Below, piece by piece: positions 1 through 18,902 of a stretch of 32,383 nucleotides of DNA. The notes below the pieces were generated by a model, which was not told where the DNA came from, did no database searches, and saw only the letters and a list, made by a program, of their open reading frames with translations. This DNA comes from a virus. Lineage: Duplodnaviria; Caudoviricetes. Position 1 is the first letter of the stretch, and each line of letters begins with the position of its first letter. Made by a program: the position numbers and the translations under genes. The stretch is taken from positions 1 to 32,383 of the IMG/VR virus record IMGVR_UViG_3300036985_001355; one strand, written 5' to 3'.

Positions 1-2
1 AG

Positions 3-968
3 CTTCTCTCTCAGACCAACGAGATCCTGACCGACGCCGTGTTCAAGGAAGGCAACCTTCCTACCGGTGACCGTGTCGTGATCCGCACTGGTCTTCCCAC
101 CGTCTACTGGCGTGCCTTGAACAAGGGTATCCCGTCCAGCAAGAGCACGACCGCTCAGGTCGATGAGGCTTGCGGCATCCTGGAGGCGCGCTCGGAGATC
201 GACGTTGACCTCGCGATGCTGAACGGCAACACGGATGCGTTCCGTCTGTCGGAGGATGTCGCGTTCCTGGAAGCCATGAACCAGACGATGGCGACCACGA
301 TGTTCTACGGCAACCCGGCAACGGACCCGTTGCAGCCGCTGGGGCTGTCCAGCCGCTACTCGCTGACCTCGGCTGGCAACGGGCAGAACATCCTTCTCGG
401 CGGCAACGCCATCGCGATCACCAGCGCGTCGATCTGGCTCGTCTGCTGGGGCGACAACACCGTCTACTGCCCGTTCCCGAAGGGCAGCAAGGCTGGTCTC
501 CTGCACGAGAACCTTGGAACCGAGACGGTCTACACCCCGGCATCGGCTGGCAGCGCGAACGCTTCGTCCACCGAGCGTATGCGCGCTCTCGTCACGCGCT
601 ACCAGTGGAAGACTGGTCTCGTGGTCAAGGACTGGCGCTACTGCGTCCGCATCCCGAACATCAAGGTGTCGGAGTTCACGGCGCTGAACGCGGGCGATCA
701 ACAGCCCGCGGTCTTCACCAACGTCATCCACAAGATGGCGCAGGCTGTCTACCGAATCCCCAACCTCGCGATGGGTCGCCCTGTGTTCTACATGAACCGC
801 ACGGTTCACAGTGGTCTGACGCGCCTCGCGATGGAGAAGTCGAGCAGCGTGCTCGCCATCAACCAAGGTCTGAACCAGTTCGGCGGCCCGATGTCGTGGC
901 TGTCGTTCATGGGTGTTCCGATCCGCTGCTGTGACGCCCTCGTCAACACCGAAGCCCTGGTCGCCTGA
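3..968 (+). CDS. Major capsid protein, BPP-1 Bbp17-like (HK97 fold); 5'-truncated by the window edge
   Basis: The frame is open from base 3 (LLSQTNEILTDAVFKEGNLPTG...). RTGLP..WR.LN.G..SKSTTAQV...CG.LEARSE.D, W..GL.V.DWRY.VRI.NI and terminal F.GVPIR..DAL.NTEA.V match Bbp17-type capsids. Cement-like genes follow. Confidence 0.9.
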   Translation, partial: LLSQTNEILTDAVFKEGNLPTGDRVVIRTGLPTVYWRALNKGIPSSKSTTAQVDEACGILEARSEIDVDLAMLNGNTDAFRLSEDVAFLEAMNQTMATTMFYGNPATDPLQPLGLSSRYSLTSAGNGQNILLGGNAIAITSASIWLVCWGDNTVYCPFPKGSKAGLLHENLGTETVYTPASAGSANASSTERMRALVTRYQWKTGLVVKDWRYCVRIPNIKVSEFTALNAGDQQPAVFTNVIHKMAQAVYRIPNLAMGRPVFYMNRTVHSGLTRLAMEKSSSVLAINQGLNQFGGPMSWLSFMGVPIRCCDALVNTEALVA

Positions 969-986
969 TCCAAGGAGGATCTCAAC

Positions 987-1739
987 ATGCCCTACCTTGA
1001 CAACAACCTCGTGCTTGATTCGGCTGCTCTCGGCAGCGCGATCACGGCGACGGCTCTCACCACCAACTACATCGACGCGACTACCGCGCTGCGCGATCTT
1101 GCCCGTGGCAAGAACATGTATGCGCTGTTCACCGTCGAGGTCGCGGCAACGGCAACGACCGCTGGACAGCTTGAGCTTCAAGTTGTCTCGCTCCCGGTCA
1201 CGACTCTCGCCGGTCTCACTTCCACGGCTCCGACCATGGAAGAATCTGACGATGTCGTGACTTGGACGGCGCACGGTCTCCCTGCCGGGACGCCTGTGGC
1301 CGTGACGGCGATCACTGGTGGCACTGGTGGCAACCTCACCGCGAGCCGCCCGTACTACGTTGCGGCTGGCGCTACGCTGACCACCAACGGCTTCCGCCTC
1401 GCCACGACCCCAGGTCTGGCTCTCGCAGGAGCCCCTGATGTCACGATCACGGCTGACGCGACGGCCATGACGATCACGGTCATCCCGCAGATCCTTGGGA
1501 CTTCGGGCAACCTGACGCCCTCGATGCTCACGGTCGGGTCACAGATCGCGGTCCGACTGAACCACCCGATGTTGCACAACATCGAATCTCAGCGGCAAAT
1601 CTCGCTCCCGAACTTCCGCTATATGTTCGGGCGCTACGTGGTCACTGGGACCATCGCGGCTGTCGAGTTCCGCGTTGAACTCGTGGAAGGCGAACCGGAC
1701 GGGCTGAAGTTCTACCCGAGCGGCTTCACCATCACCTGA
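987..1739 (+). CDS. Capsid cement/decoration protein (Bbp16-like) with a ~80-100 aa internal beta-domain insertion
   Basis: Strong SD AAGGAGG. N-terminal YLDNNLVLDS..AITATALTTNYID and C-terminal RYM..RY.VTG...YPSGFTIT resemble Bbp16. It lies directly after the capsid gene. The extra length is a WTAHGL...YYV...FRLATT module. Confidence 0.75.
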   Translation: MPYLDNNLVLDSAALGSAITATALTTNYIDATTALRDLARGKNMYALFTVEVAATATTAGQLELQVVSLPVTTLAGLTSTAPTMEESDDVVTWTAHGLPAGTPVAVTAITGGTGGNLTASRPYYVAAGATLTTNGFRLATTPGLALAGAPDVTITADATAMTITVIPQILGTSGNLTPSMLTVGSQIAVRLNHPMLHNIESQRQISLPNFRYMFGRYVVTGTIAAVEFRVELVEGEPDGLKFYPSGFTIT

Positions 1740-1747
1740 GGAGGCAC

Positions 1748-2293
1748 ATGTACTCTGACGCATTCCTCAAGCTGTCTGACAACCAGTCGTTCGCTTCGGC
1801 CCCAGGCGATGTCACTGACAACATCATCGACCTTGGTTCGATCCGCAACATGGGTGTCGGAGAGCCCCTGATCGCTGTCATCAGCATCAGGACTGCGTTC
1901 ACTCCAGATGGCTTAGTTGATCCACTGATCCAGTGGCTTTTCTACGCCAGTGAACTCAGCACGAAGGCAGACTCTACGACCGCCCAAGAGCTTGGCCGGT
2001 CGGCGATCTACTCTGCCAACAGCGTTGTTCTCACTCGGAACCTACGGGCTGGGGCCAAGATTTGCGTCCCGCTTCTCCCTGTCACGACCGTTCGCGGTTC
2101 AGGCACCGACTTTGGTGCCACGACCATCGAGACGAAGGGGCGTAGATACCTCTACGGAGCGATGAATGTCACCGGGAGCGGCGACTTCCTGACCGGCACG
2201 TTCGACATCGACATCTGCACCCAAGCGCAGTTCGGTGGCGGGACGGACTACTCCGATGTCCCGCTCTACGCGACCGGCATCACCATCGCCTGA
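1748..2293 (+). CDS. Second capsid cement/decoration protein (Bbp16-like paralogue)
   Basis: SD GAGGAGG. MYSDAFLKLSDNQ..TDNIIDLG..RNMGVGEPL, LRAGAKI.VPL, RRYLY...VTG..F.TGTF and YATGITIA follow the Bbp16 pattern. Its C-terminus parallels the previous gene. Confidence 0.8.
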   Translation: MYSDAFLKLSDNQSFASAPGDVTDNIIDLGSIRNMGVGEPLIAVISIRTAFTPDGLVDPLIQWLFYASELSTKADSTTAQELGRSAIYSANSVVLTRNLRAGAKICVPLLPVTTVRGSGTDFGATTIETKGRRYLYGAMNVTGSGDFLTGTFDIDICTQAQFGGGTDYSDVPLYATGITIA

Positions 2294-2338
2294 TCTCTCT
2301 GTCGCGCAGCAGTCGCTACCTGCTTCGCGGACCTGTGT

Positions 2339-2377
2339 GCCGCTCGCCTGTTGTTCTCGCGGGCGAGCGGCTTTTTT
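2339..2377 (+). terminator. Rho-independent terminator after the capsid/cement genes
   Basis: 12-bp stem GCCGCTCGCCTG/CGGGCGAGCGGC (one G-U), 9-nt loop, then TTTTTT. A second hairpin (CGCG-C-AGCAG/CTGCT-T-CGCG, 2303-2329) lies just upstream. Confidence 0.85.
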
Positions 2378-2394
2378 CGTAAAGGACGCAAGGC

Positions 2395-4425
2395 ATGAAC
2401 ATCAACGTCGGACTGCGTAGCCGTAACACGAACTTCAACGTCTCGACTGCTGATGTTGACCTGACGGGGCGTGCGTCGAGGTTTGGTGCGTGGACGAGTG
2501 CGTGGATTCACGATCCGCTTGAGACTGATCCAGCCGCTGCGTTTGCTGGCATCACCTACTTGTTTGAATACAAGTGGCCTGAGCGATTCAACGCGATCCA
2601 TATGTCCCTCATCCCGAAGGGACCGAATCGTGGCAAGGTCGTGGTGTGGGACAACGCGCCGGTCATCGCGACTCTCGCGAACGATCCTCTGGTTGCGGCT
2701 AACACGCTGTGGTCGCTGCAAGCGTGGGCGATCGTGGACCCTGCTGATGAACCAGCGGGTGCTAGGTTCCAGAACTTCTTCTTCCCTGTTGGTCCGATCG
2801 AAGGTGACTTTGGAACACCTTCCACCGTTCGCATTCCCAACCTGTTCTGTGCTGGTCACACTTGGACGCAGAACGGCGACTTGATGATCGCTGGCGGCAT
2901 GAGTTGGGATCCCGATGTCAACCAGTATGCGGACAACAAGGTCTACATCTGGGCACCGTCGCTGGATATGTCGTGCTACTCGACCGACGATGCTGGCACG
3001 CCGACGTTCAACTCGGCTCTGACCGGTGGTCACTACACGACCGGCAAGGGCGCGTGGGTTCAAGCCGCAGTGCTCGACTTCGGTCGCTACTACCCATCGG
3101 TGAACCTGAGTCCTTCGTTCGTTCGCACCGGCAACAAGCCTGTGCTGATCGTGGCTGGTGGCAGCAACGACTTGCTTCTTGCCAACCAGGACTACACGCA
3201 CAACCCGACGTGGAACACCTACGAAGCCTACGTCGTGAACGCGGCACCGACCGCTACCGCATCAGGTCTCATCAAGGACGTTGACGGCATCGACGTTTGG
3301 CCCGGCCCTGGCGTCCTGCTTGACAACACGCCGTTTGAAGACTCGCTCTACTTCTACTCGCGCAGCTACTTCAAGACCAACGGGGACTTGTTCATGGCTG
3401 GCATGGTTCACAAGAGCGCGACTCTTGCTGACCATGACGGTGCCCCAGGCGTGTGGACTACGACGCAAGGGCACAGCGAACCTGTCGGTCTGCTGAACGA
3501 GTTCCGCTACTACGGCTCCAGCGTCCAGCTTCAGAACTTTGAGACGCACGCGGATGTCATCTACCGCATGGGTGGCGCGCAGATCCCACCGTTCATCGAA
3601 TGGACTGCTGGCGTAGATCCCGACCGCGAGTTCGACACGAACACCGTCGAGCGCATCAACCTGACCGCTGGCGGCACTGAGCAGTGGGCACCGGCTCCTG
3701 CGATGAACGTTCCCCGCCAGATGCTGAACACCGTTGTGCTTCCTGACGGCAGCATCGTGGCGTTCGGTGGCGTGGACTGGCAACCGACCGACGAGCCGCC
3801 AGTGCCGCACGAGTTCTTGCAGCACGGTGGCTTGCACAACGACAACTTCCTCTACCACACTGCGGTGGAGGTCTTGTTCCCCGGTGCAACCAAGTGGGTC
3901 ATCGCTAGCTGGACGGCATCGCAGTCGCGAAGGGACTACCACCAGACCACGATCCTGCTTCCAGATGGCCGCGTCATCAACGGCGGCGGCGAGTCGCGCG
4001 ACCACGGTGGTCCGCTCGATGGCTACGACTACGAGGTTTGGGAGCCGCACTACCTGCGTCCGCAGGATGACAGTCCGTATCGGCCAACGCGCCCTACGAC
4101 CGTTGTGCTGACAAGCCTTGGTTCGCCAACGCAGGACGCGGAAGGTTGCTACCTGCTCAACTACGCGACTCAGTACGAGATCACTTGCGATGACCTTCCG
4201 CAGTATCGCTACCTGAACCAAGTCAGCATCACCGCTACCGGGTCATGCACGCACCATGCAGACCTGAACAGCAAGATCCGGTTCCTCGTGGTCACGAAGC
4301 CAAACGCGACCACGATTCGGTTCACGACCCCTGCCGACGAGTCCGCGTGGCAGAAGGGGTATCACCTTCTCTGGGTTCTGACCGACCAAGGCGTCCCCGC
4401 CGAGGCTCTGTGGTTCAAGCTGTGA
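2395..4425 (+). CDS. Galactose-oxidase/glyoxal-oxidase-like copper radical oxidase (CAZy AA5-like; Kelch-type propeller plus C-terminal DUF1929-like domain)
   Basis: NLFCAGH (C152), GRYYPS (Y233), RDYHQTTILLPDGRVINGGG (Y515/H516), GSCTHH (H620), WAPAPAMNVPR..LNTVVLPDGSIVAFGG and C-terminal GYHLLWVLTDQGVP correspond in order to galactose oxidase C228, Y272, Y495, H496 and H581. Confidence 0.9.
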   Translation: MNINVGLRSRNTNFNVSTADVDLTGRASRFGAWTSAWIHDPLETDPAAAFAGITYLFEYKWPERFNAIHMSLIPKGPNRGKVVVWDNAPVIATLANDPLVAANTLWSLQAWAIVDPADEPAGARFQNFFFPVGPIEGDFGTPSTVRIPNLFCAGHTWTQNGDLMIAGGMSWDPDVNQYADNKVYIWAPSLDMSCYSTDDAGTPTFNSALTGGHYTTGKGAWVQAAVLDFGRYYPSVNLSPSFVRTGNKPVLIVAGGSNDLLLANQDYTHNPTWNTYEAYVVNAAPTATASGLIKDVDGIDVWPGPGVLLDNTPFEDSLYFYSRSYFKTNGDLFMAGMVHKSATLADHDGAPGVWTTTQGHSEPVGLLNEFRYYGSSVQLQNFETHADVIYRMGGAQIPPFIEWTAGVDPDREFDTNTVERINLTAGGTEQWAPAPAMNVPRQMLNTVVLPDGSIVAFGGVDWQPTDEPPVPHEFLQHGGLHNDNFLYHTAVEVLFPGATKWVIASWTASQSRRDYHQTTILLPDGRVINGGGESRDHGGPLDGYDYEVWEPHYLRPQDDSPYRPTRPTTVVLTSLGSPTQDAEGCYLLNYATQYEITCDDLPQYRYLNQVSITATGSCTHHADLNSKIRFLVVTKPNATTIRFTTPADESAWQKGYHLLWVLTDQGVPAEALWFKL

Positions 4426-4432
4426 GGCACCG

Positions 4433-5425
4433 ATGAACATCATCAATCTCTGCCCGACCGTCATCGACATCTACATCGCGCAGAACGACATCCAGCCGTG
4501 GACGTTCACGATCCGCAACTCGTCGTGGCAAGTCGTAGACATCACTGGCCTCAACTTTGAACTCTACATCTACGCATATCCGCACTCGGCTAGCGGGCAC
4601 ACGCACGATGAGGAAGTGACGCCAGCCGAGCCGCAGATCGTGGTTGGTAACGTGACTGATGCAGCCAACGGCGTGGTGGAGTTCGCCCTGAGCGGCTTGC
4701 AGGCTGCTACCGACCACGGCACCTACTACTACGAACTGCACGAGATTGACGGGCTGGTAACGACCGTCCTGATCAACGGCAACTTCACGTTCCTTGAGGA
4801 TATGTGTGGGTGTATTCCTCAGACCGATGTGGACATCTGCAACATGGCTCTGTCGTTCATCGGCGAGTCGGCGGATGTGCTGTCGGTCGATCCGCCCGAT
4901 CCTTCGCCGCAGGCTCGCCTGTGCCATATGTTCTACCCGATCGCTCTGCAAGCGACGTTGGACTTGCAGCACTGGTCGTTTGCCACGAACACCGAGGTGC
5001 TGACCGTTCACGAGTGCGACCGAGATGCGTGGGACTACTGCTACATGCTCCCGCACGACTTCCAGCGTCCGATCGCGGTGCTTCCCACCGGCAGCACGGA
5101 TGACAGCAAGGACGCGCAAGACTTTGTGATCGAGCAGGACACGGACGGTGTGCTGCGCCTGTTTACGGATCAGGAGGATGCAGTCCTTCGCTACTGCACG
5201 AAGATCCTCTACGCGAGAGACTTCACGCCGCTGTTCAGCCTCGTGCTGTCGTGGCACCTCGCGTCGATGCTTGCCGGTGCAACCATGAAGGGCAAGGAAG
5301 GCGCTGAGGAGTCCAAGCGGTGCTTGCAGATGATGGGCATGTATCTCGGCCAAGCAGGCCAGTCGGACGCGATCAAGCGCAACACGCACCCTGTTCACAC
5401 CCCTGACTGGATGGCGAAGCGGTAA
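4433..5425 (+). CDS. Head-tail adaptor / tail tubular protein A (T7 gp11-like) with an N-terminal BppU_N-like Ig-type domain
   Basis: The C-terminal ~200 aa (TDVDICNMALSFIGE...ARLC..FY......L..H.WSFA...W.Y.Y.LP.D..R...F.IE...LFTD) is the typical podovirus adaptor. The N-terminal ~120 aa (I.I.QND...FTI......VDITG...VTDAANGVVEF.LS...GTYYYEL) resembles BppU N-terminal domains. Confidence 0.8.
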   Translation: MNIINLCPTVIDIYIAQNDIQPWTFTIRNSSWQVVDITGLNFELYIYAYPHSASGHTHDEEVTPAEPQIVVGNVTDAANGVVEFALSGLQAATDHGTYYYELHEIDGLVTTVLINGNFTFLEDMCGCIPQTDVDICNMALSFIGESADVLSVDPPDPSPQARLCHMFYPIALQATLDLQHWSFATNTEVLTVHECDRDAWDYCYMLPHDFQRPIAVLPTGSTDDSKDAQDFVIEQDTDGVLRLFTDQEDAVLRYCTKILYARDFTPLFSLVLSWHLASMLAGATMKGKEGAEESKRCLQMMGMYLGQAGQSDAIKRNTHPVHTPDWMAKR

Positions 5426-5428
5426 GCC

Positions 5429-8377
5429 ATGGCATCGACCAAGACCTTCGTGCGTTCGTTCTCCGGTGGCGAGATCAGCACCGAGATGTTTGGGCGCATC
5501 GACGATGCCAAGTTCCAGACTGGTGCGGAGCGTCTGCGCAACTTCGTGGTGAAGCCGCAGGGTCCTGCTGTGCGGCGTCCCGGCACGCAGTTCGTGCGCG
5601 AGACCAAGGATGGCACGAAGAAGTCGCGGTTGATCCCGTTCGTCTACTCGACAGATCAGACCATGGTCATCGAGTTGGGGGACAGCCACATCCGGTTCCA
5701 CACGGATGGTGGGACGCTGGTTCACAATACGCCGGTTCCGACTGCGTTCATCCCGTCGAACGCAACGATCACGTTCGATGACGCCACTGATGAGGTGGTC
5801 TGGAACAGTCACCCGCTGGTCGCCGACAACGAGGTGTCGTTCACGGTCAGCGGCGGCATCCCTCCGGCAGGCATCAACGTCGGTCAGACCTACTACGCTG
5901 TGATCCAGAGCAGCAACCGCATCAAGCTCGCCGAAACGGCTGGCGCTGGCGGGATCACGTTCACTGGTGCTGGATCGGGCATCCCAACCGGCTACCGCCG
6001 CTACCAGCCAGGGACGCTCATCTCATACCTGACGCACAACTACATCTGTCTAGCCGAGAACGACAGCGACGTTCCGCCTGCGTTCCCGACCGCTGGCGAC
6101 GGATGGTGGTATCTGCAACCAGCCACAGGCGAGCTTGAGCTACCCGCGCCGTGGCTTGAAGCTGAACTGTTCAACCTGACCTACGCGCAGAGCAACGACA
6201 TCCTTACCATCGCTGGCACGACCGGCGGCACGCGCGAACTCAAGCGCCTGAGTGCGACCGAGTGGGTGCTTGAGACTCCGCAGCTTGTGCCTGCGTTGAG
6301 CCATCCAGAGAGCATCGTGCTGACGGCTTCGCGGGGTGAGGCTATCAGTATCAGCACAATCTCTGTCGCAGCCACAGCACTAATCGACACGGACATCGCT
6401 CACCGCTTGTCGGTTGGTGACCCAGTCTACATCGGAGGCATCAACCCTTCGCTTGGCGGGCTAGTTGACGGGTTCTACATCGTCAATACGACTCCGCTGT
6501 TTACACGATTGACTGTCCGTGACTACAGCGGCGGCGGCGTCATCGGAACGACTGGCACCTACACCGCTGCCACCGACTACGTCCAGTTCGGTTCCCGCAC
6601 CGTCGATGTCACCAAATACTACAAGGTGACGGCGGTCTCCGCTGACGGCAACGAGTCCGAGCCATCTGTCGAACAGAGCGTCACCAACAACCTGTTCATC
6701 ACCGGAGCCTACAACACAATCGAGTGGGCCGAGGTCGAAGGCGCAGCCCGCTACAAGGTCTACAAGAAGCAGAGCGGTCTCTACGGCTACATCGGTCAGA
6801 CTGAGACCGAGTCGTTCATTGATGACAACATCGCCCCAGACATGGGCGTCACGCCGCCTATCCGCACGAACGGCGAGTTGATCCTGCCTGACAACTACCC
6901 TGGCGCGGTTGCCTACTTTGAGCAGCGCCGCTGCTTCGCTGGAACGCCAACCGAGCCGCAGAGCCTATTCCTCACGCGCAGCGGCAGCGACTACGACCTC
7001 GCCTACTCGCTCCCGACCATCGACACCGACCGCATCAAGGTCCAGATCGCGGCTCGCGAGTCGAATACGATTCGCCACATCGTCCCGATGTCGGAGCTTC
7101 TGCTGCTGACCAACTCGGCAGAGTGGCGAGTCACTGCGGTCAACAGCGAGGCGCTGACGCCTACGAGCATCAGCATCCGCGCGCAGAGCTACACCGGCGC
7201 GAACCATGCGCAGCCGCAGATCGTGAACAACTCGCTGGTGTTCTGCGCCAACCGTGGCGGTCACGTTCGCGAGCTTGCGTTCAACTGGCAGGCGCAGGGG
7301 TATCAGACTGGCGACCTGTCGCTTCGCGCTGCGCACTTGTTCGACAACTACGAGATTCGCGACATGACCTACGCGAAGTCTCCGATCCCGGTCCTGTGGT
7401 TCACGAGCACGAGCGGGCAACTGCTGTCGCTGACCTACGTGCCAGAGGAGCAGGTTGGCGCATGGTGCTGGCACGCCACGGACGGCGAGTTTGAGTCCGT
7501 ATGCTCGGTGCCAGAAGGTGAGGAGGATTCCGTCTACGTCAGCGTGAAGCGCACGATCGACGGCAGCACGGTGCGCTACATCGAGAAGTTCGCGCCCTAC
7601 GAGTTCGCGGCGCTGGAGGATGCGTTCTACGTGGACAGTGGCCTGACGTTCGACGGCACCAACACTGTCGGCACCGCGCTGATGACTCTGAGCGCGGCAA
7701 CGTGGACGGCAGGATCAACCATCACGATCACGGCAACTGCGCACTCGCCGTTCATCTTCCCGACGCAGAGCGACGTTGGCGATCAAGTCGTGTTCTACGG
7801 ATCGGATGGGACCGAGTATCGAATCACGATCGCGGCAACATCTAGCGCCACAGTTGCGACTGGCACTTGCACCGCCACGATCCCTGCCGAGCTTCGTGCA
7901 GCAGCGACTGCAACGTGGGCTTGGGCGCGCGACACGATGTCGGGTCTTGGGCACCTTGAAGGCGAGTCGTTGTCGATCCTCGCAGACGGGACCGTCCATT
8001 CTGCGCAGACCGTAGACACTGCCGCAATCTCGCTGAATGCCCCATACGTCAAGGTCCATGCTGGGCTCGGCTACACCAGCGACCTCAAGACCTTGCCCAT
8101 GGCGATCCAGATGGAAGGCTTCGCGCAAGGTCGCACGCTCAACGTCAACGCCGCGTGGGTGCGGTTCTACCAAACCGCTGGCGGCGAGATCGGACCTGAT
8201 GAGGACCGACTGATTCCCCTCAACCCTACCGAGACGGGCGATGAAATGCGCAGCGTCATGGTAGATACGTTGCTGCTGAAACGCTGGCAGCAAGGCGGGC
8301 AAGTGTGGATCAGGCAAGATGATCCGCTGCCCATGACTGTTGTGAGTATCACGGCGGAAGTTAGCATCGGAGGCTGA
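5429..8377 (+). CDS. Tail tubular protein B / nozzle (T7 gp12-like), with inserted beta-domains
   Basis: SFSGGEIS.EMFGRID...FQTG...RNF.V.PQG...RRPGT.FV, RLIPF, Y.QSND, NYPGAV.YFEQR..FAG, DLSL.A.HL and L.HLEG...I.ADG...GL.Y are hallmark motifs. It follows the adaptor. Confidence 0.9.
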   Translation: MASTKTFVRSFSGGEISTEMFGRIDDAKFQTGAERLRNFVVKPQGPAVRRPGTQFVRETKDGTKKSRLIPFVYSTDQTMVIELGDSHIRFHTDGGTLVHNTPVPTAFIPSNATITFDDATDEVVWNSHPLVADNEVSFTVSGGIPPAGINVGQTYYAVIQSSNRIKLAETAGAGGITFTGAGSGIPTGYRRYQPGTLISYLTHNYICLAENDSDVPPAFPTAGDGWWYLQPATGELELPAPWLEAELFNLTYAQSNDILTIAGTTGGTRELKRLSATEWVLETPQLVPALSHPESIVLTASRGEAISISTISVAATALIDTDIAHRLSVGDPVYIGGINPSLGGLVDGFYIVNTTPLFTRLTVRDYSGGGVIGTTGTYTAATDYVQFGSRTVDVTKYYKVTAVSADGNESEPSVEQSVTNNLFITGAYNTIEWAEVEGAARYKVYKKQSGLYGYIGQTETESFIDDNIAPDMGVTPPIRTNGELILPDNYPGAVAYFEQRRCFAGTPTEPQSLFLTRSGSDYDLAYSLPTIDTDRIKVQIAARESNTIRHIVPMSELLLLTNSAEWRVTAVNSEALTPTSISIRAQSYTGANHAQPQIVNNSLVFCANRGGHVRELAFNWQAQGYQTGDLSLRAAHLFDNYEIRDMTYAKSPIPVLWFTSTSGQLLSLTYVPEEQVGAWCWHATDGEFESVCSVPEGEEDSVYVSVKRTIDGSTVRYIEKFAPYEFAALEDAFYVDSGLTFDGTNTVGTALMTLSAATWTAGSTITITATAHSPFIFPTQSDVGDQVVFYGSDGTEYRITIAATSSATVATGTCTATIPAELRAAATATWAWARDTMSGLGHLEGESLSILADGTVHSAQTVDTAAISLNAPYVKVHAGLGYTSDLKTLPMAIQMEGFAQGRTLNVNAAWVRFYQTAGGEIGPDEDRLIPLNPTETGDEMRSVMVDTLLLKRWQQGGQVWIRQDDPLPMTVVSITAEVSIGG

Positions 8378-8379
8378 AC

Positions 8380-9069
8380 ATGGCTGGTGGCGGACCTTCT
8401 TACGGATTCTGGGGTGGCGACGGTGCCGGGTCGCTGGGGCAGAACTCTGCCTTCAACATGGGCAGTGACAGCGGCGGGGGCGGTGGCGGCGGTGGCGCTG
8501 GGCTGATGGCCGGTGGACCTGTCGGGATGATCCTTGCCATCGTAGGTGCCGCATCTACCGCGATCGGCTCCTTCTACGAAGCCAAGAGCGCCCAATACAA
8601 GCTCAAGAGCGAAGCCCTGTCGCTGGAGTATCAGCAGTCTGTCAGCAACATGAACGCCCGCGCTGCCGAGGTGCAGGCGCAGCAGATCCTGGAAGCCGGT
8701 CAAAAGCAGATCGGGCAATACACCATGCGCGCTGGTGCCGAGAAGGCATCGCAGGAAGCGAGCCTTGCCGCACGCGGTATCCAAGCCGGTGTTGGCTCTG
8801 CCGCCGAGCATGTTGCCAGCAGCGACATCATCAAGGAGATCGACACGATGACGATCAACGTCAACGCCGTAAGGGCCGCAAACGCCGCCAGGATGCAGGC
8901 TGTCAACTACCGCAACCAAGCAGCTTTCGCAGGCATGAACGCCCGTAACGCGCGATCCTCAGCCCGCACGATCAATCCTGGTGCGTCGGTGATGACTTCC
9001 TTGCTCGGCAGCGCCAGCCAAGTCGCTGGGCAGTGGGCTCCCTACATGGCTAGCCGAGGAGGCTACTGA
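8380..9069 (+). CDS. Internal virion/ejection protein (T7 gp14-like)
   Basis: Gly-rich hydrophobic N-terminus, Ala/Gln-rich helices and Q.ASLAA.GI....GSA motif. Lies after the nozzle gene. Confidence 0.7.
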   Translation: MAGGGPSYGFWGGDGAGSLGQNSAFNMGSDSGGGGGGGGAGLMAGGPVGMILAIVGAASTAIGSFYEAKSAQYKLKSEALSLEYQQSVSNMNARAAEVQAQQILEAGQKQIGQYTMRAGAEKASQEASLAARGIQAGVGSAAEHVASSDIIKEIDTMTINVNAVRAANAARMQAVNYRNQAAFAGMNARNARSSARTINPGASVMTSLLGSASQVAGQWAPYMASRGGY

Positions 9070-11018
9070 TGCCCCGTGTCCCAGGGCTCGGAGGTCATCG
9101 ACCATTCGTCCCGAGCGTAGATCCGCAAGTCGGCGGCATGGTGCCGTTGCAGGCGCAGCAGACGCTCCCGATGCAGAACTTCGCACCGCAGCAGATGCAG
9201 GAAGCCGGTCGCGCTGTCCAGCAGTTGGGCGGCGTGGTCTCCGACTACGCGATGCGGGTGCAGAACGAGGTTGACTCGGCCAACATCAAGCGGCACGACA
9301 ACATCCTCGCCGACGAGATCGAGCGCATCATGCGCGACCCTAAGTCGGGGTATCTGAACCAAGTCGGCAAGGTTGCCGTGGACAACCGGCAGGTTGCGTT
9401 CGACGCCTTGGCGAAGAAGCAGAAGGACATCGAGAAAGGCTTGCAGAACCCACTGCAACGGCAGATTTGGGGCGAGAACGCGCAGAAGCGCATCCGCCAA
9501 GCGACGAGCGATGCGAACGAGCACTACACCAAGCAGGCGAAGGTGTGGGAGATCGGGGAGTCGCAGGTTCGTGCTGGCAACTTCGTGCGGGACATGCAGC
9601 GGACTGCCCTGAGAACCGATTCTGAAGGCATCAAGGAATATGACGATGCCAAAAGGTGGCTGAAGGGTGAAGCCGACCGCATCTCTGAGTTGAGCGGGCA
9701 CCCGATCGGCAGCGCGCAATACAACGAGACCCGTCTGCAAGCGACCACGAACGCCCATTCGTCCATCATCCGTGGCATGGCGGATCAGAACCCGCAGAAG
9801 GCGCAGGAGCATCTGGACGCCGCGTCTGCTGCTGGTGAGATCGCCCCCGAGGTCGCCGCCGACCTGAAGAAGTTGGTTCAAGGCGCGACCGAGGATGACA
9901 TGGCGCAGCAGCTAGCCATGATGCCGCAGATGGCGAAGGCTTCTCTCCAAGAGAAGGTCGAATACATCAACTCGCTCTACTCTGGAAAGCACATCTCTGT
10001 TGGCGTTCGCGACAAGGCGATTCACCGAGTCATCGACGCCAAGCAGATCGAAAACATCGGTCGCGCTGAAGACGAGTCCGCCATGCAGGGCGAGTGGCAG
10101 CAGTGGATGATGAATCACCCACTACAGCACCCAAGGACCGGTCCCGCGCATCTGACCAAGTGGGCGAACGAGACTGGTGGTTGGGACTGGATCATCAACT
10201 TCTCCAAGACCAAGTCTGTGGTCACGGATCAAGAAGTGTTCTCGTCCTTGATGCGGGATTACCAGCGCAATCCAACACAGTTCGCTGCTGGTAGCGACCC
10301 AGTGCTATTGGCAAAACTCCGTACGAGGCTTGAGCCAGATGACCTTAACTACATTATGGCGCTGCGCAGCCAAGTGCGCGGCAATGCGTCACAGAAGGAC
10401 ATCGGCATCTTGACCGAGGCTGAGGTCGTGAACAACGCTGCCAAGGATCTTGGCTACATGGACTACAGCGGCAACATCAAGAGCCAAAGCAGCTTCAACG
10501 ACTACCGCAACCTAAGAATGCAGACGCACGCTGCTGTGGTGGCGAGCGGCGATGGAAGCCTTGCCAGCGTATCGAAGATCGTAAAGACGATCGTCGCAGA
10601 CAAGGTGCATATCTCCGACTACGGCTTCGACTCCGAGATGAGGCTTATCGACGTTCCGGCAGGAACGGACCCGACCACGATCTACGTCCCGACCGAGGTC
10701 GGCGAGATGTATCTGAACCAGATCCCGCCAGAGGAAGTCGCGATGGCTGATGACTTCCTGCAAGGGCGAGGTGAGATCGTCACATCGGCGGCAATCGCCA
10801 ACACCTACGCTGGGCGAGTGAAGATGAACGAGGAGCACATTCGCAAGCACGGCGTCCCGATGCCTGGGTTCTTCCCGATTCTCCCCAAGGACAGCGGGCG
10901 AAGGTTCCCGCTTGGTCCGCCGTCAACCGAGGATCAGATCAACCAGTCGATTCAAGACTCCATCCGAGATGCCATCGCTGATGAGGAGTCGTTCGGCTGG
11001 TACGGGGGCAAGCGATGA
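9069..11018 (+). CDS. Internal virion/ejection protein (gp15-like by position)
   Basis: 649 aa helical protein starting MPRVP with a GYLN.VGK.A motif. Coupled by overlaps between the gp14-like and gp16-like genes. Confidence 0.6.
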   Translation: MPRVPGLGGHRPFVPSVDPQVGGMVPLQAQQTLPMQNFAPQQMQEAGRAVQQLGGVVSDYAMRVQNEVDSANIKRHDNILADEIERIMRDPKSGYLNQVGKVAVDNRQVAFDALAKKQKDIEKGLQNPLQRQIWGENAQKRIRQATSDANEHYTKQAKVWEIGESQVRAGNFVRDMQRTALRTDSEGIKEYDDAKRWLKGEADRISELSGHPIGSAQYNETRLQATTNAHSSIIRGMADQNPQKAQEHLDAASAAGEIAPEVAADLKKLVQGATEDDMAQQLAMMPQMAKASLQEKVEYINSLYSGKHISVGVRDKAIHRVIDAKQIENIGRAEDESAMQGEWQQWMMNHPLQHPRTGPAHLTKWANETGGWDWIINFSKTKSVVTDQEVFSSLMRDYQRNPTQFAAGSDPVLLAKLRTRLEPDDLNYIMALRSQVRGNASQKDIGILTEAEVVNNAAKDLGYMDYSGNIKSQSSFNDYRNLRMQTHAAVVASGDGSLASVSKIVKTIVADKVHISDYGFDSEMRLIDVPAGTDPTTIYVPTEVGEMYLNQIPPEEVAMADDFLQGRGEIVTSAAIANTYAGRVKMNEEHIRKHGVPMPGFFPILPKDSGRRFPLGPPSTEDQINQSIQDSIRDAIADEESFGWYGGKR

Positions 11019-14000
11019 CCGGTCTGGACATCGGCCAAGCAGACGATTCGCTGTTCTTGGTTCCGCAGAACCCGGTTGATCCGCTGGCGGGTCCGAGGAC
11101 GCTCCCGCCAGACTACGATCGGCAGGCTTACAGCGATCAGATGGGCGCTTACCAGGACGGCAAGCGCGAGCAGCAGATGCTCAACACCTTCCGCCTAGCG
11201 GTGAAGAAGGACGCGAACCTCCGCGCGGAAGCCGTGCGTATCGCAGGCGAGATCGGGCAGACGCCAGACTTGGTTGAGAAGAACATCGCGGTCATGCGCG
11301 AATGGGCCAAGCGGCGAAAGGTCGCTGAGATGAACATGACCAGGAGCAACCCGGTGCTCGCTGGCAAGCTCATGGACTTGGAGTTTGCGCGCATCACGCA
11401 TGATGACGTTGCGAACCTGAGCTTTGTTGAAAGCGTCACGCGGAACTTCCAAGCTGGTGCAGTCTCGCAGAAGGCTGGATCGTTGGAATGGAAGAAGGCG
11501 CAAGGCACGGCGACGGCTGGCGATCTTGCCGAACTTGAGTCGCTTCGCACCGCGCAAGAAGACTTGCCGATGACTTCTGGCGGCTTCTTCGGCGGTGCTG
11601 CTCGCTCGCTTGGGCAGATGGGTGCCATCGCCCCAGCAGCTTTCGATCGAGCACTCCAGATCGGCATGGCGTCCGCGACCATGACGAGCATCGCGACTTC
11701 GGCAGGCATTGCCACGTTGCCAGCCGCATTCGCCACCGTCCCCGCATCGTTCTTCACCGGCATGTTCATCGGTGGTTCTGCCGAAATGTTCATGCAGTGG
11801 CAGCACTCCATGTCGGGCGATGCCTTTCGCCAGATGGTGGACGAAGGATACGACGAGGACGCCGCCTACTACGCGAGCTTCGGCGTTGGTGTGATCGGTG
11901 CGTCTCTTGAAAGTGCGTCGATGGGCACCGCCACGTCCTTCCTCGTGAAGCCGCTGGCGAAGCGACTCATCAGCGACACGCTGAGGAAGCGACTGACCAA
12001 GGAAGGTGTCTCGGAAGCCTTCACCCAACTGACCACCCGCAGCGCGCTCAAGACCGGCTTGACGCGATACGCGCAGACGCTCGGCGCAGAAGGCTTGACC
12101 GAAGCCAGCCAGACCGTGGTCGAACACCTTGGCCGCAAGTTCGCGAAGCAGTATTCGCCCGAGGTCTTGCTGCGCGAGTTCGCCGACCCGTCGAAGGCGG
12201 ATGACCTGTCGGACTCGCTTGCCAGCATGTTTGAGGAGACGCTTTACCAAGCCGGTCTCCTGAGTGCTGTTGCTCCCGGTCTCGCGCTCCGCGTGGACTT
12301 GGCGAAGGCAAAGCGTGCCGATGCTGCGTTCCAGACGCTGGGCAATCTGGTGAAGGCGGTAGACGCCACCGCCACGAAGAAGCGCAACCCCGAAGTCGCA
12401 GCGGACACCGTGCAGGACATGGCGGACGCTAGCGGTGCGGGCACGTTCTACGTCGCACCGGACAAGCTGGGCGAGGTGCTGAACGCGATGGGCGAGACGC
12501 CAGAGTCCGCCGACAAGGTGCTCCCTGGGCTGGCTGCAAGGCTGACTGCGGCGCTCCAGAGCGGGGGGCTAGTCGAGATCCCTGCTGGAGACTTCGTGGC
12601 AAGGACGGCCCGCACAGGCTTCCAGGAAGCCATCCTGCCGCACATCAAGACCGCCGTGGACGCGATGTCGCAGTTTGAGGCGAAGGAAGTCATCAGTCAG
12701 TTCCAGCAGAACATCGCCGCTCACGGCGAGATGGCGATGCAGGACAAGGACTTTGCCGAATCCGCAGCCCGCGTTGGCAAGTCGATCTACGAGCAAGTGA
12801 AGGGCAGCGGCGTGTTCGACGCCGATGACAAGGTGCGCGGTGCAACCCTTGCCGCCAAGACTTGGTTCCAGAACTTCGCCGCTCGCGTGAACCAGAGTCC
12901 CGAGGAAGCGCAGGCGCTGTTCGGTAAGACGCGCATCACGCCCGAGGATGTCTACGCCAAGTTCCCGCTCAAGATTGGGGTGGGGGAGATGCAGGTTACG
13001 GGCGAGCAGTTGAATGCGCAGGGTGCGCCGCAGACTCCAGAGTTCCAGTCGTGGTTCGGGGAGTCTAAGGTTGTCGATGGTGACGGCAAGCCGTTGGTTG
13101 TCTACCACGGTACGCATAGCGATTTCACGCAGTTCGATCGGCTCCAGAAATCAAAGGAGCGCAATGCACGCCAGATCGACACTGTAGGACTTTGGTTTAC
13201 GAGTAAGCAGTCATCAGCCGGGGCCTATGGTCCGAAGGTTATGTCTGGCTACATCTCGATGCGTAATCCTCTCCGCTTCACAGGTGACGGTGGACAGGGC
13301 GGGTGGCGGCGCATGTATTCCGCCATCCAAGCAGAAGGAGGAGTTGAGGAGTTTAGAAAGAAAGCGATAGATGAAGGCTACGACGGCATCGTTATCGAAG
13401 GTGACAAAGTAGACAAGTTCGATGGCGACATTTACATCGCCTTTGAATCCAACCAGATCAAGTCCGTCAACAACCAGCGTCCCACCAACGACCCCAACAT
13501 CCTCAAAGCAGGCTCCACCGCCCAATACTCAGTCGGCGAACACAAGATCACGCTGACGAAGTCGGCGAAGTTGCCAGAGTTCATGCACGAACTCTCGCAC
13601 TTCTGGACCGATGTCACGTTGGCGCTGGCTCAAGATCCAAACGCCCCCGCCTTCGCAAAGCAGGACGCGCAGACGTTGCTGGACTTCTTCGGCTTGAAGT
13701 CGATGGACGAATGGAACGCGCTGTCGAAGCCAGAGCGCGTCAAGCGGTATGAGCAGATCGCCTACAACGCCCCGATCTACTGGGCGGAAGGCAAGGCACC
13801 GACCAAGGGATTGGCGAAGCTGTTCAACAACATGCGCCGCTGGATCTTGGATGTCTACAAAGACATCCGTGGCAGCATGAACGAGCAGTATCGCAAGGAG
13901 CTTGCGCAGCAAGGACTGCCGCTGGAGGACTTGCCGATCCTGACGCCAGAGATTCGCCGCTGGTTCGACAACATGCTTGCCAGCGAGCGGATGATTGAGG

Positions 14001-17000
14001 AGGCGTATGCCGCTCGGAAGCTCCAGCCGATGTTTGAGGCGAAGCACGATGGCATGTCGGACGCGCAGTGGAGCGATTTGCAAGAAGTCTCGCAGGCGCA
14101 GTTTGACAAGGCGATGAACACGCTCGACCAGCACTCGCTCGCCACGGTCGGCTACTACAAGCGCAAGGCTGACGAGATCCGCAACAAGATCGACCGGCAG
14201 AAGCAGGAAGTGCGCAAGGCTCTGCGCGAGGAAGTGGCGAAGGAGATCCGTGGTCGCGCGATCTACCAAGTCATCAACTACCTGCTGACCGGCAAGATCC
14301 TCTACACGGACGGGACGCAGAAGGAGTCAAAGCGAGTCCGCGTCATCGCCAACCAGAAGGGCGAAGGCAAGATCGTCACTGGCGTTCACAAGTTGCAGAT
14401 CGACGCCATCGAGTCGATGGTCGGCTTCGGTCAGAACGTCGGCGAACTTGAGCAGCAGCAGATCCCAAAGTCTGTCGAGAGTGCCATCAAGGCGCGCGAC
14501 AAGGCTGTTGAAGACCTTGTGTCTGCGAAGAAGAACCTCGATGAGATCGAGAAGTCGCAGACTGATGAGGATGCGCAGTTCAAGAAGGACATCGCTGCCA
14601 TCAACGAGAAGGAGAAGGCTGCGACCAAGCAAGTGCCGAAGGGGCTCAAGAAGCCCGAGCGCGACAAGGCTCTTGCCGACAACAGGAAGGTTGTCGCCGA
14701 AGCGAAGAAGGAGCGAGAAACCGTCAAGTCGTTCTACTCGACGATGACGGAAGCTAGCGCGAAGAAGAAGGAGCAACTGGAGGCTCGCGTCCCGGTTCTC
14801 CAGCAACGCATCAAGAGCCTGTCCGCCCGCATCGACTTGGGTATGCCCAAGGTCGCGACTCAGGTTCTCGACAAGTTGGAAGGCATGGTCGCTACGGTCG
14901 GTCTCGACCCGCGCGAAGTGGCAGAGTCCTTCGGCTTCAAGGACGCAGCGACCATGATCCGCCAGATCATCGCGTCCCCGTCTATCGAGGAGAAGATCGA
15001 GGAAGTCACCGACCGCCGCATCGAAGCCGAGTTCAGCGAACTGTCTGATCCGCAGAAGGTGGAGGAGACGATCGCGTCTGCGATCCACAACGACCTTCGC
15101 GCTGACATGATCGCGATGGAGTTCCGGGCACTCAGCAAGATGATGATGCCGCTGGGGGTGCTGCGCGATGCTGCGCGTATCGCTGCCATCACGATCCTCA
15201 ACGGCATGAACGTCGGCGACATCGACGTTCGCAAGTTCGACGCCGCTGCTGTTCGCGCTCGCCGCATGGCAGAGAAGGCGATGGGCAAGCCCAACGGCAC
15301 GTTTGAGGCTCTGCAATACAAGCGGCAGGAGTTGCTGCAAACCGAGCTTGCGCGCCTTGCTACGCAGGAGAAGAAGGAGATCGAGAAGCGGATCGCGTCC
15401 ATCAAGAAGATGGGCAAGGTCGGCGACAAGGATCTGGGCAAGGGTCGGCACTACGAGACCGCACTTGCCGCACGCGCACTCGCTGGTCTCTACGAGATCG
15501 CTGGGTCTGCCAAGTTCGTCGATGCCAAGGCCAAGATCGAGAACATCAAGACCTACGACGAGGAAATGCACCGCGAGCTAGCGGAGATCCTCGCTGTTGC
15601 CGCGAACGTCGTGGAAGAAGCCCGCGCACGGCGCAACGTCATCGGCGGCAAGCTGACTCGCTCGCAGAAGCAAGTCTACAAGTCGATCACGCTGGACGAG
15701 TTCAAGAACGCCACGGACGCTATCGAAGCCATCTGGCAAGAAGCGTCGGACATGAAGAAGGTGGAGATCGACGGCAAGCAGATGCTGGTCGATGAAGCCG
15801 CACCGCTGCTGGAGCAGAAGCTGGTAGACCGTGGTGCGCCAGAAGTCGCCGACAACGTGAATGCGCGGCGCACTGAGGCTCGCAAGAGGATGGGCATGTT
15901 CATGGGCCACCGCGCTCATGTAACGCGACTGGAGAACCTGTTCCTCTACTTGGACGGTGGCACTCCAGGTCCGTGGACGAAGATGGTGTGGCGACCGCTG
16001 AACGATGCGTCTGTCGCTTACCGAAAGCAGTGGGCCGAGTTCAACGCCGAGTTCAACGCGATCTTCAAGGCGATTCGCGACACCGGCCAGAAGGACATCG
16101 ACGCGCCACGGCTGAAATACAAGTTCACCGACAAGTGGGAACTGCTGCACGCGATCCTCTACAGCGGCAGCGTCACCGGCAAGGACAAGCTCCTTCGCGC
16201 AGGCACGAGCGACCGCACGCCATGGGGCGCTGTCCGCGATGACGGCACGCTCGATGACAGTGCGTGGCAGGAGACGATCAACGAACTCGTGCTCAACGGC
16301 ACGCTCACGGCAGCGGACTTCAAGGCTGTCGAGAAGTTGTTCGCGCTGTTCGCCAAGTTGCAGAAGCCCTACTTCCAAGCGTGGCGCAAGGTGTTCGGGC
16401 ATCCACCAGAAGCGATCGAGCACTTGGACATCGTGACCCCGATCGGCACGTTCAAGGGCGGCTACATCCCGCTGCGTGCAGACCCAGAGCGCAACGTGGA
16501 CGCAAAGTTCCGCGACCTGAACCAAGAGACCCTGAAGACCCACCGTGTTGCGCTGGCTCGCGTGAAGTCGGGTGCAGGCAAGAAGCGCACGGGTGCTGTC
16601 TACCCGCTGCTGATGGACTTGCGGAAGATCCCGTCAGTGCTGGGCGAGCAGATCCGGTTCATCAACATCCAGCCGAAGCTGGGCGAGGTGATGAAACTGC
16701 TGAAGCACCAGAAGGTGATGGGGGCGCTGGAGCGTTACGACGAGACGCTGTTCACGGACGCCATTGACAAGTGGCTGCAACGCATCGCGTTCCAATCCAC
16801 CAGCACGCCTAGCTCGCACCCCGGCATCGACAAGTGGGCGCGGCACATCAAGCAGTCGGTTGGCTTGACTCGCATGGTCGGCAACTACGGAAACATCATC
16901 GGACAGTCCACGGGGCTTGCCGTTGCTGTTCCCGAAGTCGGTGCCGACCGCATGGCGAAGGCTCTGCACCATGTGATGACCAACTTCGGTGATGTGTTCG

Positions 17001-17965: not shown

Positions 17966-17975
17966 GGGCTACAAC

Positions 17976-18293
17976 GTGACCACTACGACATTACCGTCAA
18001 CCCCCAATCCTATGGCGAAGCCCGACCTTGCAAAGTTCGACGGATGGCTACGTGCCGCGTCCATCCTTTGCACCGCCATCCTGATCCCAGCGGTCGGTTG
18101 GGCATGGGGTATGACCGACAAGATCGCGGTCTTGGGGAACGACATCTCCAGCCTTCGCCAGCAGATCGAAGGCGAGCATCGCGGCAACAACGCCGTGATC
18201 GACGAACTCAAGCTGCTGCGTGCCAGCATGGACGCGCTGAAGTCTGACCTACAGCAACGCCTGACGCGCGTAGAAACGCGCCTGGACAAGTGA
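17976..18293 (+). CDS. Small membrane protein with one N-terminal TM helix and a coiled coil (holin- or i-spanin-like)
   Basis: GTG start with GAGGG upstream (alternative ATG at 18012). TM helix WLRAASILCTAILIPAVGWAW, then a heptad region ending RLTRVETRLDK. Located at the end of the virion module. Confidence 0.5.
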   Translation: MTTTTLPSTPNPMAKPDLAKFDGWLRAASILCTAILIPAVGWAWGMTDKIAVLGNDISSLRQQIEGEHRGNNAVIDELKLLRASMDALKSDLQQRLTRVETRLDK

Positions 18294-18628
18294 TGACCCG
18301 ATTGTCGATCCTGCTCGCGATGTCGCTTCTGGTGGCATCCTGCGGCGTTCTGAGCCCTGAGCAACGGTCGAACGTTGCCGCTCAAGTCGAATCCGAATAC
18401 GCAGCCGGGAACATCACCCGGTCCCAGCGTGATGCGGCCATCGAGGCGCTGGAGAAGGACGAGCCGTTCGACTGGGAACTGCTCGGCGTGGTCGGTCTGA
18501 ACATCGCGCTCGCCCTTGTTGGCGGGCCGATGATCGTGCGCCGCCAGCGCGGTGCGCCGACGCAGAAGGTTGGCTTGCCTGCTGCCCTCGTCCACGAGGA
18601 GCCGCCGATCAAGCGCGGCGTCAGCTAG
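18290..18628 (+). CDS. Lipoprotein with a C-terminal TM helix (spanin candidate)
   Basis: Signal peptide with lipobox LLVAS-C18. A second hydrophobic helix WELLGVVGLNIALALVGGPMIV is followed by RRQR. Confidence 0.6.
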   Translation: MMTRLSILLAMSLLVASCGVLSPEQRSNVAAQVESEYAAGNITRSQRDAAIEALEKDEPFDWELLGVVGLNIALALVGGPMIVRRQRGAPTQKVGLPAALVHEEPPIKRGVS

Positions 18629-18640
18629 CTAGAAAGCGAG

Positions 18641-18661
18641 ACGGGCGATGCCACCGCCCGT
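18641..18661. terminator. Hairpin between convergent operons (possible terminator)
   Basis: ACGGGCG-7nt-CGCCCGT perfect stem with outer GCTAGA/TCTAGC arms. Only a weak U tract on the minus strand. Confidence 0.4.
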
Positions 18662-18692
18662 AGCACCGCCCGCCTCTAGCGACCCAGCCGCC

Positions 18693-18902
18693 TCACTCGG
18701 CGGGATCGTGTTCGGTCTTGATCGTGTGTTCCGCTTCCCACTTCGCGACTTCGGCTAGGTGGTAACGGATGGTCGCACGCCCTCCAGCAGATGTTGGCAT
18801 CCGCATGTAGGGCGGTCCCACTTCGCGCCTACGCCAGTCCTTGAGCGTCCGAGCACTCAAGCCCCAGCGTTGCGCCAGTTCTTCTGTGGTCAGCAGGCTC
18901 AT
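18693..18902 (-). CDS. Excisionase/AlpA-like helix-turn-helix DNA-binding protein
   Basis: MSLLTTEELAQRWGLSARTLKDWR...GPPY.R......IRY.L.EV.KWE is a typical Xis-type HTH pattern. ATG at 18902 overlaps the upstream stop (ATGA). Confidence 0.8.
   Translation of the reverse strand: MSLLTTEELAQRWGLSARTLKDWRRREVGPPYMRMPTSAGGRATIRYHLAEVAKWEAEHTIKTEHDPAE

Follow-up and report, generated by a model that had tools for sequence, protein, structure and literature searches.

A copper radical oxidase gene in the tail module of a BPP-1-like podophage and its predicted role at the host surface

The enzymes with which phages act on host receptors are described in reviews as hydrolases, lyases, and esterases (PMC7916357, PMC10743462, PMC13123978), and depolymerases are divided into hydrolases and lyases (PMC7916357). 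The G7C gp63.1 deacetylase and the SGNH receptor-binding proteins supply the model of a virion enzyme that edits a glycan and does not cut it (PMC10743462, PMC13123978). The esterase and lyase of G7C and Alt63 are interchangeable on one virion, modification without cutting is sufficient, and the deacetylase tailspike is processive (PMC10743462); temperate phages often carry SGNH receptor enzymes (PMC13123978). With an oxidase, the phage receptor enzymes would extend to redox chemistry, and adsorption would depend on copper and oxygen. The candidate considered here is encoded in a 32,383-nucleotide stretch of viral DNA (Duplodnaviria; Caudoviricetes; IMG/VR record IMGVR_UViG_3300036985_001355, positions 1 to 32,383), called the window below, where an open reading frame (ORF) at positions 2395-4425 on the plus strand codes for a 676-residue AA5-type copper radical oxidase (CRO). 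On balance, we think it probable, with considerable room for doubt, that a BPP-1-like podophage carries this enzyme, its five-residue site intact, on its tail collar, where it oxidises a glycan of the host surface.

The closest described systems match this locus in part. The locus resembles G7C-type tailspikes in that different enzymes, here a SASA esterase and the CRO, are interchangeable at one tail position. Unlike gp63.1 and the SGNH proteins, which are hydrolases on trimeric fibres, the CRO is a metal-radical oxidoreductase that needs O2 and is predicted to hang from the adaptor. Fusolin, the nearest viral copper-enzyme precedent, is found in spindle crystals and is not a tail part. It is an AA10 lytic polysaccharide monooxygenase of entomopoxviruses that likewise pairs a virus copper enzyme with oxidative attack on host polysaccharide (PMC12767849), but it comes from an insect virus, and the CRO belongs to a different family with a different chemistry.

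The oxidase and its active site

AA5 enzymes carry out two-electron oxidations with a Cys-Tyr radical, release H2O2, and mature by themselves in the presence of Cu and O2 (PMC11611005, PMC4703870). The first-pass annotation, made from the sequence alone, had assigned 2395-4425 to this family, and both the fold and the residues bear that out. Like Fusarium galactose oxidase (1GOF), Streptomyces GlxA (4UNM), Pseudarthrobacter GalOx (9G43), and Colletotrichum AlcOx (5C92), the window protein joins a kelch beta-propeller to a C-terminal E-set domain, the fold that characterises AA5 in CAZy, and presents Cys, Tyr, Tyr-His, and His in the same order. Foldseek searches with an AlphaFold2 model (pLDDT 85, pTM 0.89) placed AA5 CROs at all of ranks 1-27 (E 6e-28 to 1e-20; next fold 1e-11), VIA gave Z scores of 30-34 over 434-469 residues for 25 AA5 entries (next fold 17.7), and the overall root-mean-square deviation (rmsd) from AA5 structures was 2.6-3.3 Å. 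The 17 PDB sequences that match the protein are all galactose oxidase, GlxA, or Colletotrichum CROs, and a profile raises the match to E 1e-49. Profile searches of the kind first suggested gave a divided result: the GO-like E-set family PF09118 passes the Pfam cut-off at residues 588-675 (E 6e-10), whereas Glyoxal_oxid_N had no match to the window CRO at E<=0.01 in the Pfam scan.

Set against the same four AA5 enzymes, the window CRO is 14-23% identical, lacks a signal peptide and a CBM32 domain, and has an N-terminal leader, about 200 residues of extra loops, and a gene within a phage tail module. Model residue 27 aligns to 1GOF residue 155, and the Pfam scan gave no CBM match, so the N-terminal CBM32 of galactose 6-oxidase (AA5_2, Fusarium type) is absent; against the GlxA equivalog NF052501 the protein scores 55.6 bits, where the cut-off is 800. 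It belongs neither to the galactose oxidases nor to GlxA.

Phage proteins named 'galactose oxidase' or kelch (A0A5C1K815; phage D6 ORF19, PMC11139720) share a beta-propeller with the CRO. The BFVD rows so labelled differ from it, being propellers of 312-362 residues with a TM score of about 0.3 to the CRO model. Misannotation of a kelch protein was rejected for the window gene, the top folds all being AA5 CROs. The phage literature is brief: the 'galactose oxidase' ORF is named in one sentence of PMC11139720, and the term appears in a table row of PMC9611531 and as a reference only in PMC11058221. No paper describing a phage CRO or oxidase was found in the main texts of the open-licence literature, and neither the CRO nor its cellular relative P0017 had a tblastn match among 50,697 phage records.

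The active-site residues are present at the positions first assigned to them, all on the plus strand: C152 in NLFCAG (2848-2850), Y233 in RYYP (3091-3093), Y515-H516 in RDYHQ (3937-3942), and H620 in CTHH (4252-4254). In alignment with galactose oxidase, C152, Y515/H516, and H620 fall on its motifs for Cys, Tyr-His, and His, and their predicted roles are those of the Cys-Tyr cross-link partner, the axial Tyr with a Cu ligand, and a Cu ligand from the E-set domain, respectively. Y233, the predicted radical tyrosine, aligns with the GlxA motif RWYP across a weak stretch (2.8 bits). The full AA5 set of cross-link Cys and Tyr, axial Tyr, and two His is complete at conserved positions in 34/34 rows of the viral clade described below and in 72 of 78 other rows, five of the exceptions being gaps. 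For comparison, the other four Cys of the window CRO are kept in 3-68% of clade members, and only 53 of the 676 positions are invariant. One further residue, Y373, is invariant in the viral clade only (34/34 vs 27/78 other rows), a hint of a shared pocket feature, and N258, which stands after GGS, may correspond to the Trp290-type second-shell residue (W290) of Fusarium-type galactose 6-oxidase. The ratio of nonsynonymous to synonymous substitution rates in the CRO gene was 0.05, 0.13, and 0.12 in three pairs of relatives (adaptor 0.04, 0.18, and 0.11) and 0.37 for the window against L002; the CRO is under purifying selection.

The codon use of the gene is as ordinary as the first reading had judged it, with a GC content at third positions of 0.74 and a codon adaptation of 0.69, inside the ranges of eight other structural genes (0.72-0.85 and 0.62-0.80), and a recent, non-adapted insertion was rejected for that reason. 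A chimeric assembly, raised at the outset as a possible artefact, was rejected as well, since two other assemblies carry the same CRO-adaptor-nozzle junctions: record L001 is 96.7% identical to window 2193-10202, and window 2193-6500 is spanned, with 21 differences, by a single contig from run X2 of a different study.

Gene order and origin of the enzyme

The virion module of Bordetella phage BPP-1 runs from capsid and Bbp16 through adaptor and nozzle to three ejection proteins, and the window holds the same genes in the same order, all on the plus strand. The major capsid protein, of BPP-1 and GP7 type, lies at 39-968 with its 5' end cut by the window edge (PF20911 E 4.5e-104; phrog_212). It is followed by a Bbp16-type cement protein at 987-1739 (PF21190 E 1.3e-11) and a second, weaker one at 1748-2293 (PF21190 E 2.8e-4, below the cut-off). 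Beyond the CRO gene come the adaptor, whose T7 gp11-like tail tubular core occupies 4820-5425 (residues 131-330; phrog_394 E 5e-35), a nozzle 55.7% identical to BPP-1 Bbp13 at 5429-8377 (phrog_376 E 4e-184), and three ejection (internal virion) proteins at 8380-17965 (Pfam/PHROG), the last a polyvalent protein of 2316 residues. Unlike BPP-1, the window phage has a CRO gene and an adaptor extension inserted into this series. Terminase, portal, and scaffold genes are missing from the window; the genomes of four complete relatives measure 43-46 kb.

The CRO gene does stand between the cement genes and the head-tail adaptor, 7 nt from the latter, and the survey for homologues with this synteny proposed earlier was productive: the order capsid-cement-CRO-adaptor-nozzle is kept in 11/11 viral loci down to 32% identity, with a CRO-adaptor spacing of -4 to 7 nt throughout, and likewise in L012, L014, and L022. 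In other phage types the CRO is flanked by a tail-fibre gene on either side (L032) or lies amid genes for virion structural proteins and a beta-helix protein (L013, L024), the types of L013, L024, L032, and L012 being known from stretches of 5-22 kb.

A word-index search gave 39 CRO homologues and a profile search many more. The loci examined comprised 11 viral (with near-copies, L003/L007 and L004-L006), 33 metagenome, and 40 genome loci; 38 of the genome loci are titled Planctomycetota, and four Planctomycetota genomes carry 2-9 CRO matches each. A tree was built from 118 of 225 extracted rows, 15 near-identical rows having been dropped, and took in all long locus rows, the coverage-filtered proteins P0001-26 and P0052-90, and six outgroup rows. 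FastTree recovered a single 34-row clade (support 100) that contains 12/12 context-checked phage rows and 0/30 genome rows, the remaining 22 members being rows without genomic context. The viral clade was repeated (SH-aLRT 100) in a quick IQ-TREE search under a mixture model with 54 rows, in which 10/20 'viral' rows took that label from the FastTree result. Under the chosen outgroup, the clade branches from within the cellular sequences and adjoins L072 and L019, a placement from which we infer one capture from secreted Planctomycetota-type CROs. Two cellular CRO genes (L017:11884-13506, L019:2649-4280) are directly followed by a gene for an FG-GAP repeat protein, a possible partner of the CRO in the host.

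The capture would have been accompanied by loss of the export signal. A hydrophobic leader is present in 30/30 genome loci vs 0/17 phage loci, at a hydropathy cut-off chosen after an earlier look at the data, and the highest 11-residue hydropathy in the first 45 residues of the window CRO is 0.37, in agreement with the initial reading that it has no signal peptide. The podophage CROs begin with a leader of ~25-27 residues that has an alternating hydrophobic pattern and an R-N/D motif (alignment A3). In the window this leader, residues 1-27, lies at 2395-2475 on the plus strand and may form docking strands; residues 1-20 are unstructured in the monomer model (pLDDT<50). Other clade members have N-terminal extensions of 330-490 residues, or Trp-Lys repeats, as judged by eye. 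Long extensions occur on CROs of this clade in other phage types (L024:8912-12133, L013, L032:922-3390; P0060, P0062, P0067, P0070, and P0078), from contigs of up to 95 kb.

The adaptor extension and the exchangeable tail position

The adaptor of the window phage carries an N-terminal extension of ~120 residues (residues 1-123; 4433-4801, plus strand) that would provide the docking site. Its distribution was followed through 130 loci examined via the CRO, the nozzle (the best 80 of 550 loci), or a PL26-like gene, of which 107 had an adaptor core and 98 a visible upstream region. The extension was found at 27/27 CRO loci and 0/71 others, or, with near-copies merged, in 10/10 distinct CRO adaptors vs 0/29 other distinct adaptors. 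No CRO without the extension, and no extension without a CRO, occurred among the 98 loci. Besides the 27 with both, 64 had neither and at most 51 open codons before the adaptor core, 5 had an adaptor joined in one protein to a SASA-type esterase, and 2 had another cargo of 517 residues (10, 24, 4, and 1, respectively, with near-copies merged).

What this domain is can be suggested by analogy. PMC10713586 describes LtfC of the T5-like phage DT57C as a 12-mer that binds two short N-terminal fibre strands, and the adaptors of podophages are likewise 12-mers, to which fibres are attached (PMC13730344, bioRxiv 10.64898/2026.02.16.706137). The extension resembles LtfC (p132) of the DT57C pair LtfC-LtfA, a dodecameric beta-sandwich collar that takes short N-terminal strands of an appendage (PMC10713586), by features: it is likened to BppU_N/LtfC clusters by a language model only (ESM atlas 0.94-0.95), with PF23926 on 11% and PF10651 on 16% of the neighbouring members. 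Adaptor residues 1-123 had no Pfam or PHROG match, and the single adaptor domain had none among the 50,697 phage records. The domain also differs from LtfC in being fused to a podophage adaptor. By this analogy the CRO leader would dock on the adaptor extension; a complex prediction with adaptor residues 1-128 and CRO residues 1-45 scored 0.02 and was counted neither for nor against. His-rich inserts, which could bind copper, are found in the adaptor (GHTHDEE within window 4433-5425; longer in L003-L014) and in some CRO loops.

The same tail position is used by other glycan-active domains. A SASA esterase is fused to the adaptor N-terminus at 5 loci, 4 of them distinct (Pfam E 9e-11 and 2e-8 for two, 0.005 for one); the fusions measure 738-1186 residues (L138:4661-6997, L154:3437-6997, L201:15969-18185, L226:3293-6556). 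Because the CRO lies at the tail-collar position where sister phages carry a sugar esterase, the particle likely wears the oxidase. An exchange is visible between L204, a CRO phage whose enzyme is 63% identical to that of the window, and L205: their identity is 99.0% across 11,169 bp that end at the capsid gene, the cement genes, the CRO, and the adaptor then diverge, and similarity resumes at 86% within the nozzle. In place of the CRO, L205 has a 517-residue cargo fused to its adaptor, with three beta-helix-like motifs by pattern, and the swap therefore identifies the CRO unit as an exchangeable allele. The 517-residue domain (L205:15024-17192; P0280, P0281) is also found fused to an Ad1-type head-tail adaptor in other phages, or alone.

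The absence of a conventional fibre or tailspike reported earlier holds for the window, none of whose 31 scanned ORFs belongs to a fibre or tailspike family in Pfam or PHROG; the window being a partial genome, this says little by itself. The CRO-less phages G007 and G009 have pectate-lyase-type tailspikes after the ejection genes. This tailspike/Mtd_N cassette, downstream in CRO-less relatives, was not found in 4/4 complete CRO genomes nor in the esterase phage G008, and was recovered in the control, G009. The earlier statement fails to the extent that one of the CRO genomes has a fibre-like ORF.

Proposed function, host, and neighbouring genes

The CRO is predicted to oxidise the primary alcohol of a host surface glycan during adsorption. 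Once acquired from secreted Planctomycetota CROs, the enzyme would be made in the cytoplasm together with the tail proteins, and its N-terminal strands would dock on the BppU_N/LtfC-like domain of the adaptor ring, at up to 12 sites, much as LtfA strands augment LtfC sheets in T5-like phages. After lysis, in O2, it would take up copper and form its own Cys152-Tyr233 link. It would then bind unmodified glycan, oxidise CH2OH to an aldehyde, and release H2O2, and each release of product would let the short-tailed particle ratchet onward through an uncut glycan layer, the mechanism proposed for deacetylase tailspikes. Of the function first suggested, support for a virion-borne and likely active enzyme at the host surface comes from synteny, the lost signal peptide, the adaptor domain that accompanies the CRO, and the slot that it shares with an esterase, the virion location being deduced from genomes; nothing examined supports a galactose or GalNAc substrate, aldehyde tethering, or peroxide damage specifically. 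The CRO family allows one to test directly whether processive modification of a glycan, of whatever kind, pulls a podophage to the cell. It also gives a way into the biology of uncultured Planctomycetota, namely their secreted CROs, which are uncharacterised and present in multiple copies, and their surface glycans. Its signal-free AA5 enzymes, with new active-site surroundings, may be offered as biocatalysts.

Several observations weigh against this proposal. The pairing of CRO and adaptor domain may have a single origin, as the adaptor tree needs 3 changes and only 1 is forced, and only the negatives of the domain count are independent, because its profile was built from CRO phages. The L205 cargo had no Pfam, PHROG, NCBIfam, PDB, or profile match, and other receptor-binding candidates exist besides the CRO: G005 has a 418-residue fibre-like ORF, whose N-terminus is shared by an ORF of G004, and all these phages also encode a PL26-like protein. 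The AA5 substrate is not readable from sequence (PMC11611005, PMC4703870); CgrAlcOx and GlxA barely accept galactose (PMC4703870, PMC11611005), so that membership of AA5 gives no substrate prediction, and specificity for galactose or GalNAc is not supported and the sugar need not be galactose. Many CROs require a peroxidase to stay active (PMC11611005), and none was seen in the window. The runs that hold half or more of the window words are sediment samples, from three studies besides the possible source, and O2 in sediments may be scarce.

The PL26-like protein, of 620-670 residues, is encoded between portal and scaffold (L009:3896-5770, L001:274-2202), outside the window. It has 85 homologues and no Pfam or PHROG match, and its model (pLDDT 95) has as best whole-length fold match the PL26 rhamnogalacturonan lyase (Z 11.6, 482 aligned residues, rmsd 4.3), to which a protein-atlas lead also pointed. 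The gene occurs in 36 viral loci, with or without a CRO, and has a signal-peptide-like start in some phages only. In an extended and, taken whole, unlikely version of the proposal, a ring of up to twelve CROs would form a redox class of receptor enzyme with O2-driven turnover essential for infection, the PL26-like protein would then cut the oxidised neutral glycans by elimination, and the same captured enzyme would have been re-mounted on at least three phage architectures via different N-terminal modules.

The rival that survives best keeps the CRO on the particle and active, and has it break or cross-link the layer, through imine tethers or through scission by oxidised sugars or H2O2, possibly aided by the PL26-like protein. 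It shares the virion evidence, namely the L204/L205 slot swap and the coupled adaptor domain, and a PL26-like gene precedes the CRO in every CRO locus where the region is visible. However, that gene also accompanies esterase or other cargo and appears in unrelated layouts (L195-L202, L205, L214), the Z of 11.6 is only middling for a helical toroid, and a dozen enzymes would probably make little H2O2; we regard such damage or tethering as rather unlikely. It is more unlikely again that the CRO serves the particle as a lectin-like binder of glycan or copper and needs no turnover. Seven-bladed propellers are common as phage binders, as in the kelch-type BFVD rows, and an enzyme on a free particle might not be activated or supplied with O2, yet the cross-link Cys and four ligands are kept in 34/34 sequences that diverge to about 32% identity, and in a protein that only binds the Cys would probably have been lost.

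Equally improbable is decoration of the capsid via the Bbp16-type proteins, with action on the biofilm matrix or small alcohols and not on a receptor. The cement genes, of which several CRO phages have two or three copies, precede the CRO gene, and because the cassette swapped between L204 and L205 includes them, a capsid mount keeps some small probability. Nevertheless, cement alleles differ in L001 and run X2 beside the same CRO-adaptor pair, G002 and G003 have a single cement gene, and the adaptor domain tracks the CRO exactly. In the window a terminator-like hairpin of 13 pairs, 10 of them G-C, with a T6 tail (2339-2377, plus strand) separates the head genes from the CRO; none of 10 more distant relatives has a clear T-tract at the site, so a conserved upstream terminator was not confirmed. 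The evidence favours the tail adaptor over the capsid as the likely mount. The cement genes (window 987-2293; L001, run X2) are a swap hot spot in their own right, near-identical phages having different alleles in one to three copies.

The cytoplasm, where a CRO without an export signal would sit, has little free copper. An auxiliary gene working inside the infected cell and not in the particle, as might be suggested by its host derivation and by the single listing of K04618 as an auxiliary gene in a lake virome table row (PMC9611531), is thus very improbable, the more so as the CRO keeps its place in the tail module, is coupled to the adaptor in translation, and gives way to adaptor-fused cargo in sister phages.

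The tail-collar oxidase would most plausibly serve a phage of Planctomycetota. Within a 7.19-Mb contig, G136 has a complete BPP-1-like prophage that encodes an integrase and an adaptor fused to an esterase-like domain, and there are CRO homologues of its own elsewhere in the genome; G136 shares its class with the nearest CRO donors and with G012, which carries L072. Because a prophage of the same architecture lies in G136, the host of the window phage is likely of this donor class. On the other side, no CRO-bearing prophage was found, 2/201 genomes having an adaptor homologue, both with esterase-like cargo. There was also no CRISPR host link when window 1-20000 was compared with 301 donor-class genomes; short matches fell in 65, and the three candidate CRISPR places inspected among them held no array. 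A third phage contig in the host-genome survey has a plain adaptor. Among the runs listed as sharing window sequence there was no RNA run, and RNA run X17 gave no match. The G136 prophage lies at about 1,863,000-1,911,000 of C1 (L225-L227) and is followed by further phage genes on the other strand.

The remaining genes of the window include the 2316-residue ejection protein (11015-17965), which has LPD22 and ART-PolyVal (ADP-ribosyltransferase) domains and homologues of 3400-4300 residues. Farther downstream are a RecT and YqaJ recombination pair (19135-21295) and PAPS-reductase-like and MazG genes (28186-29291).

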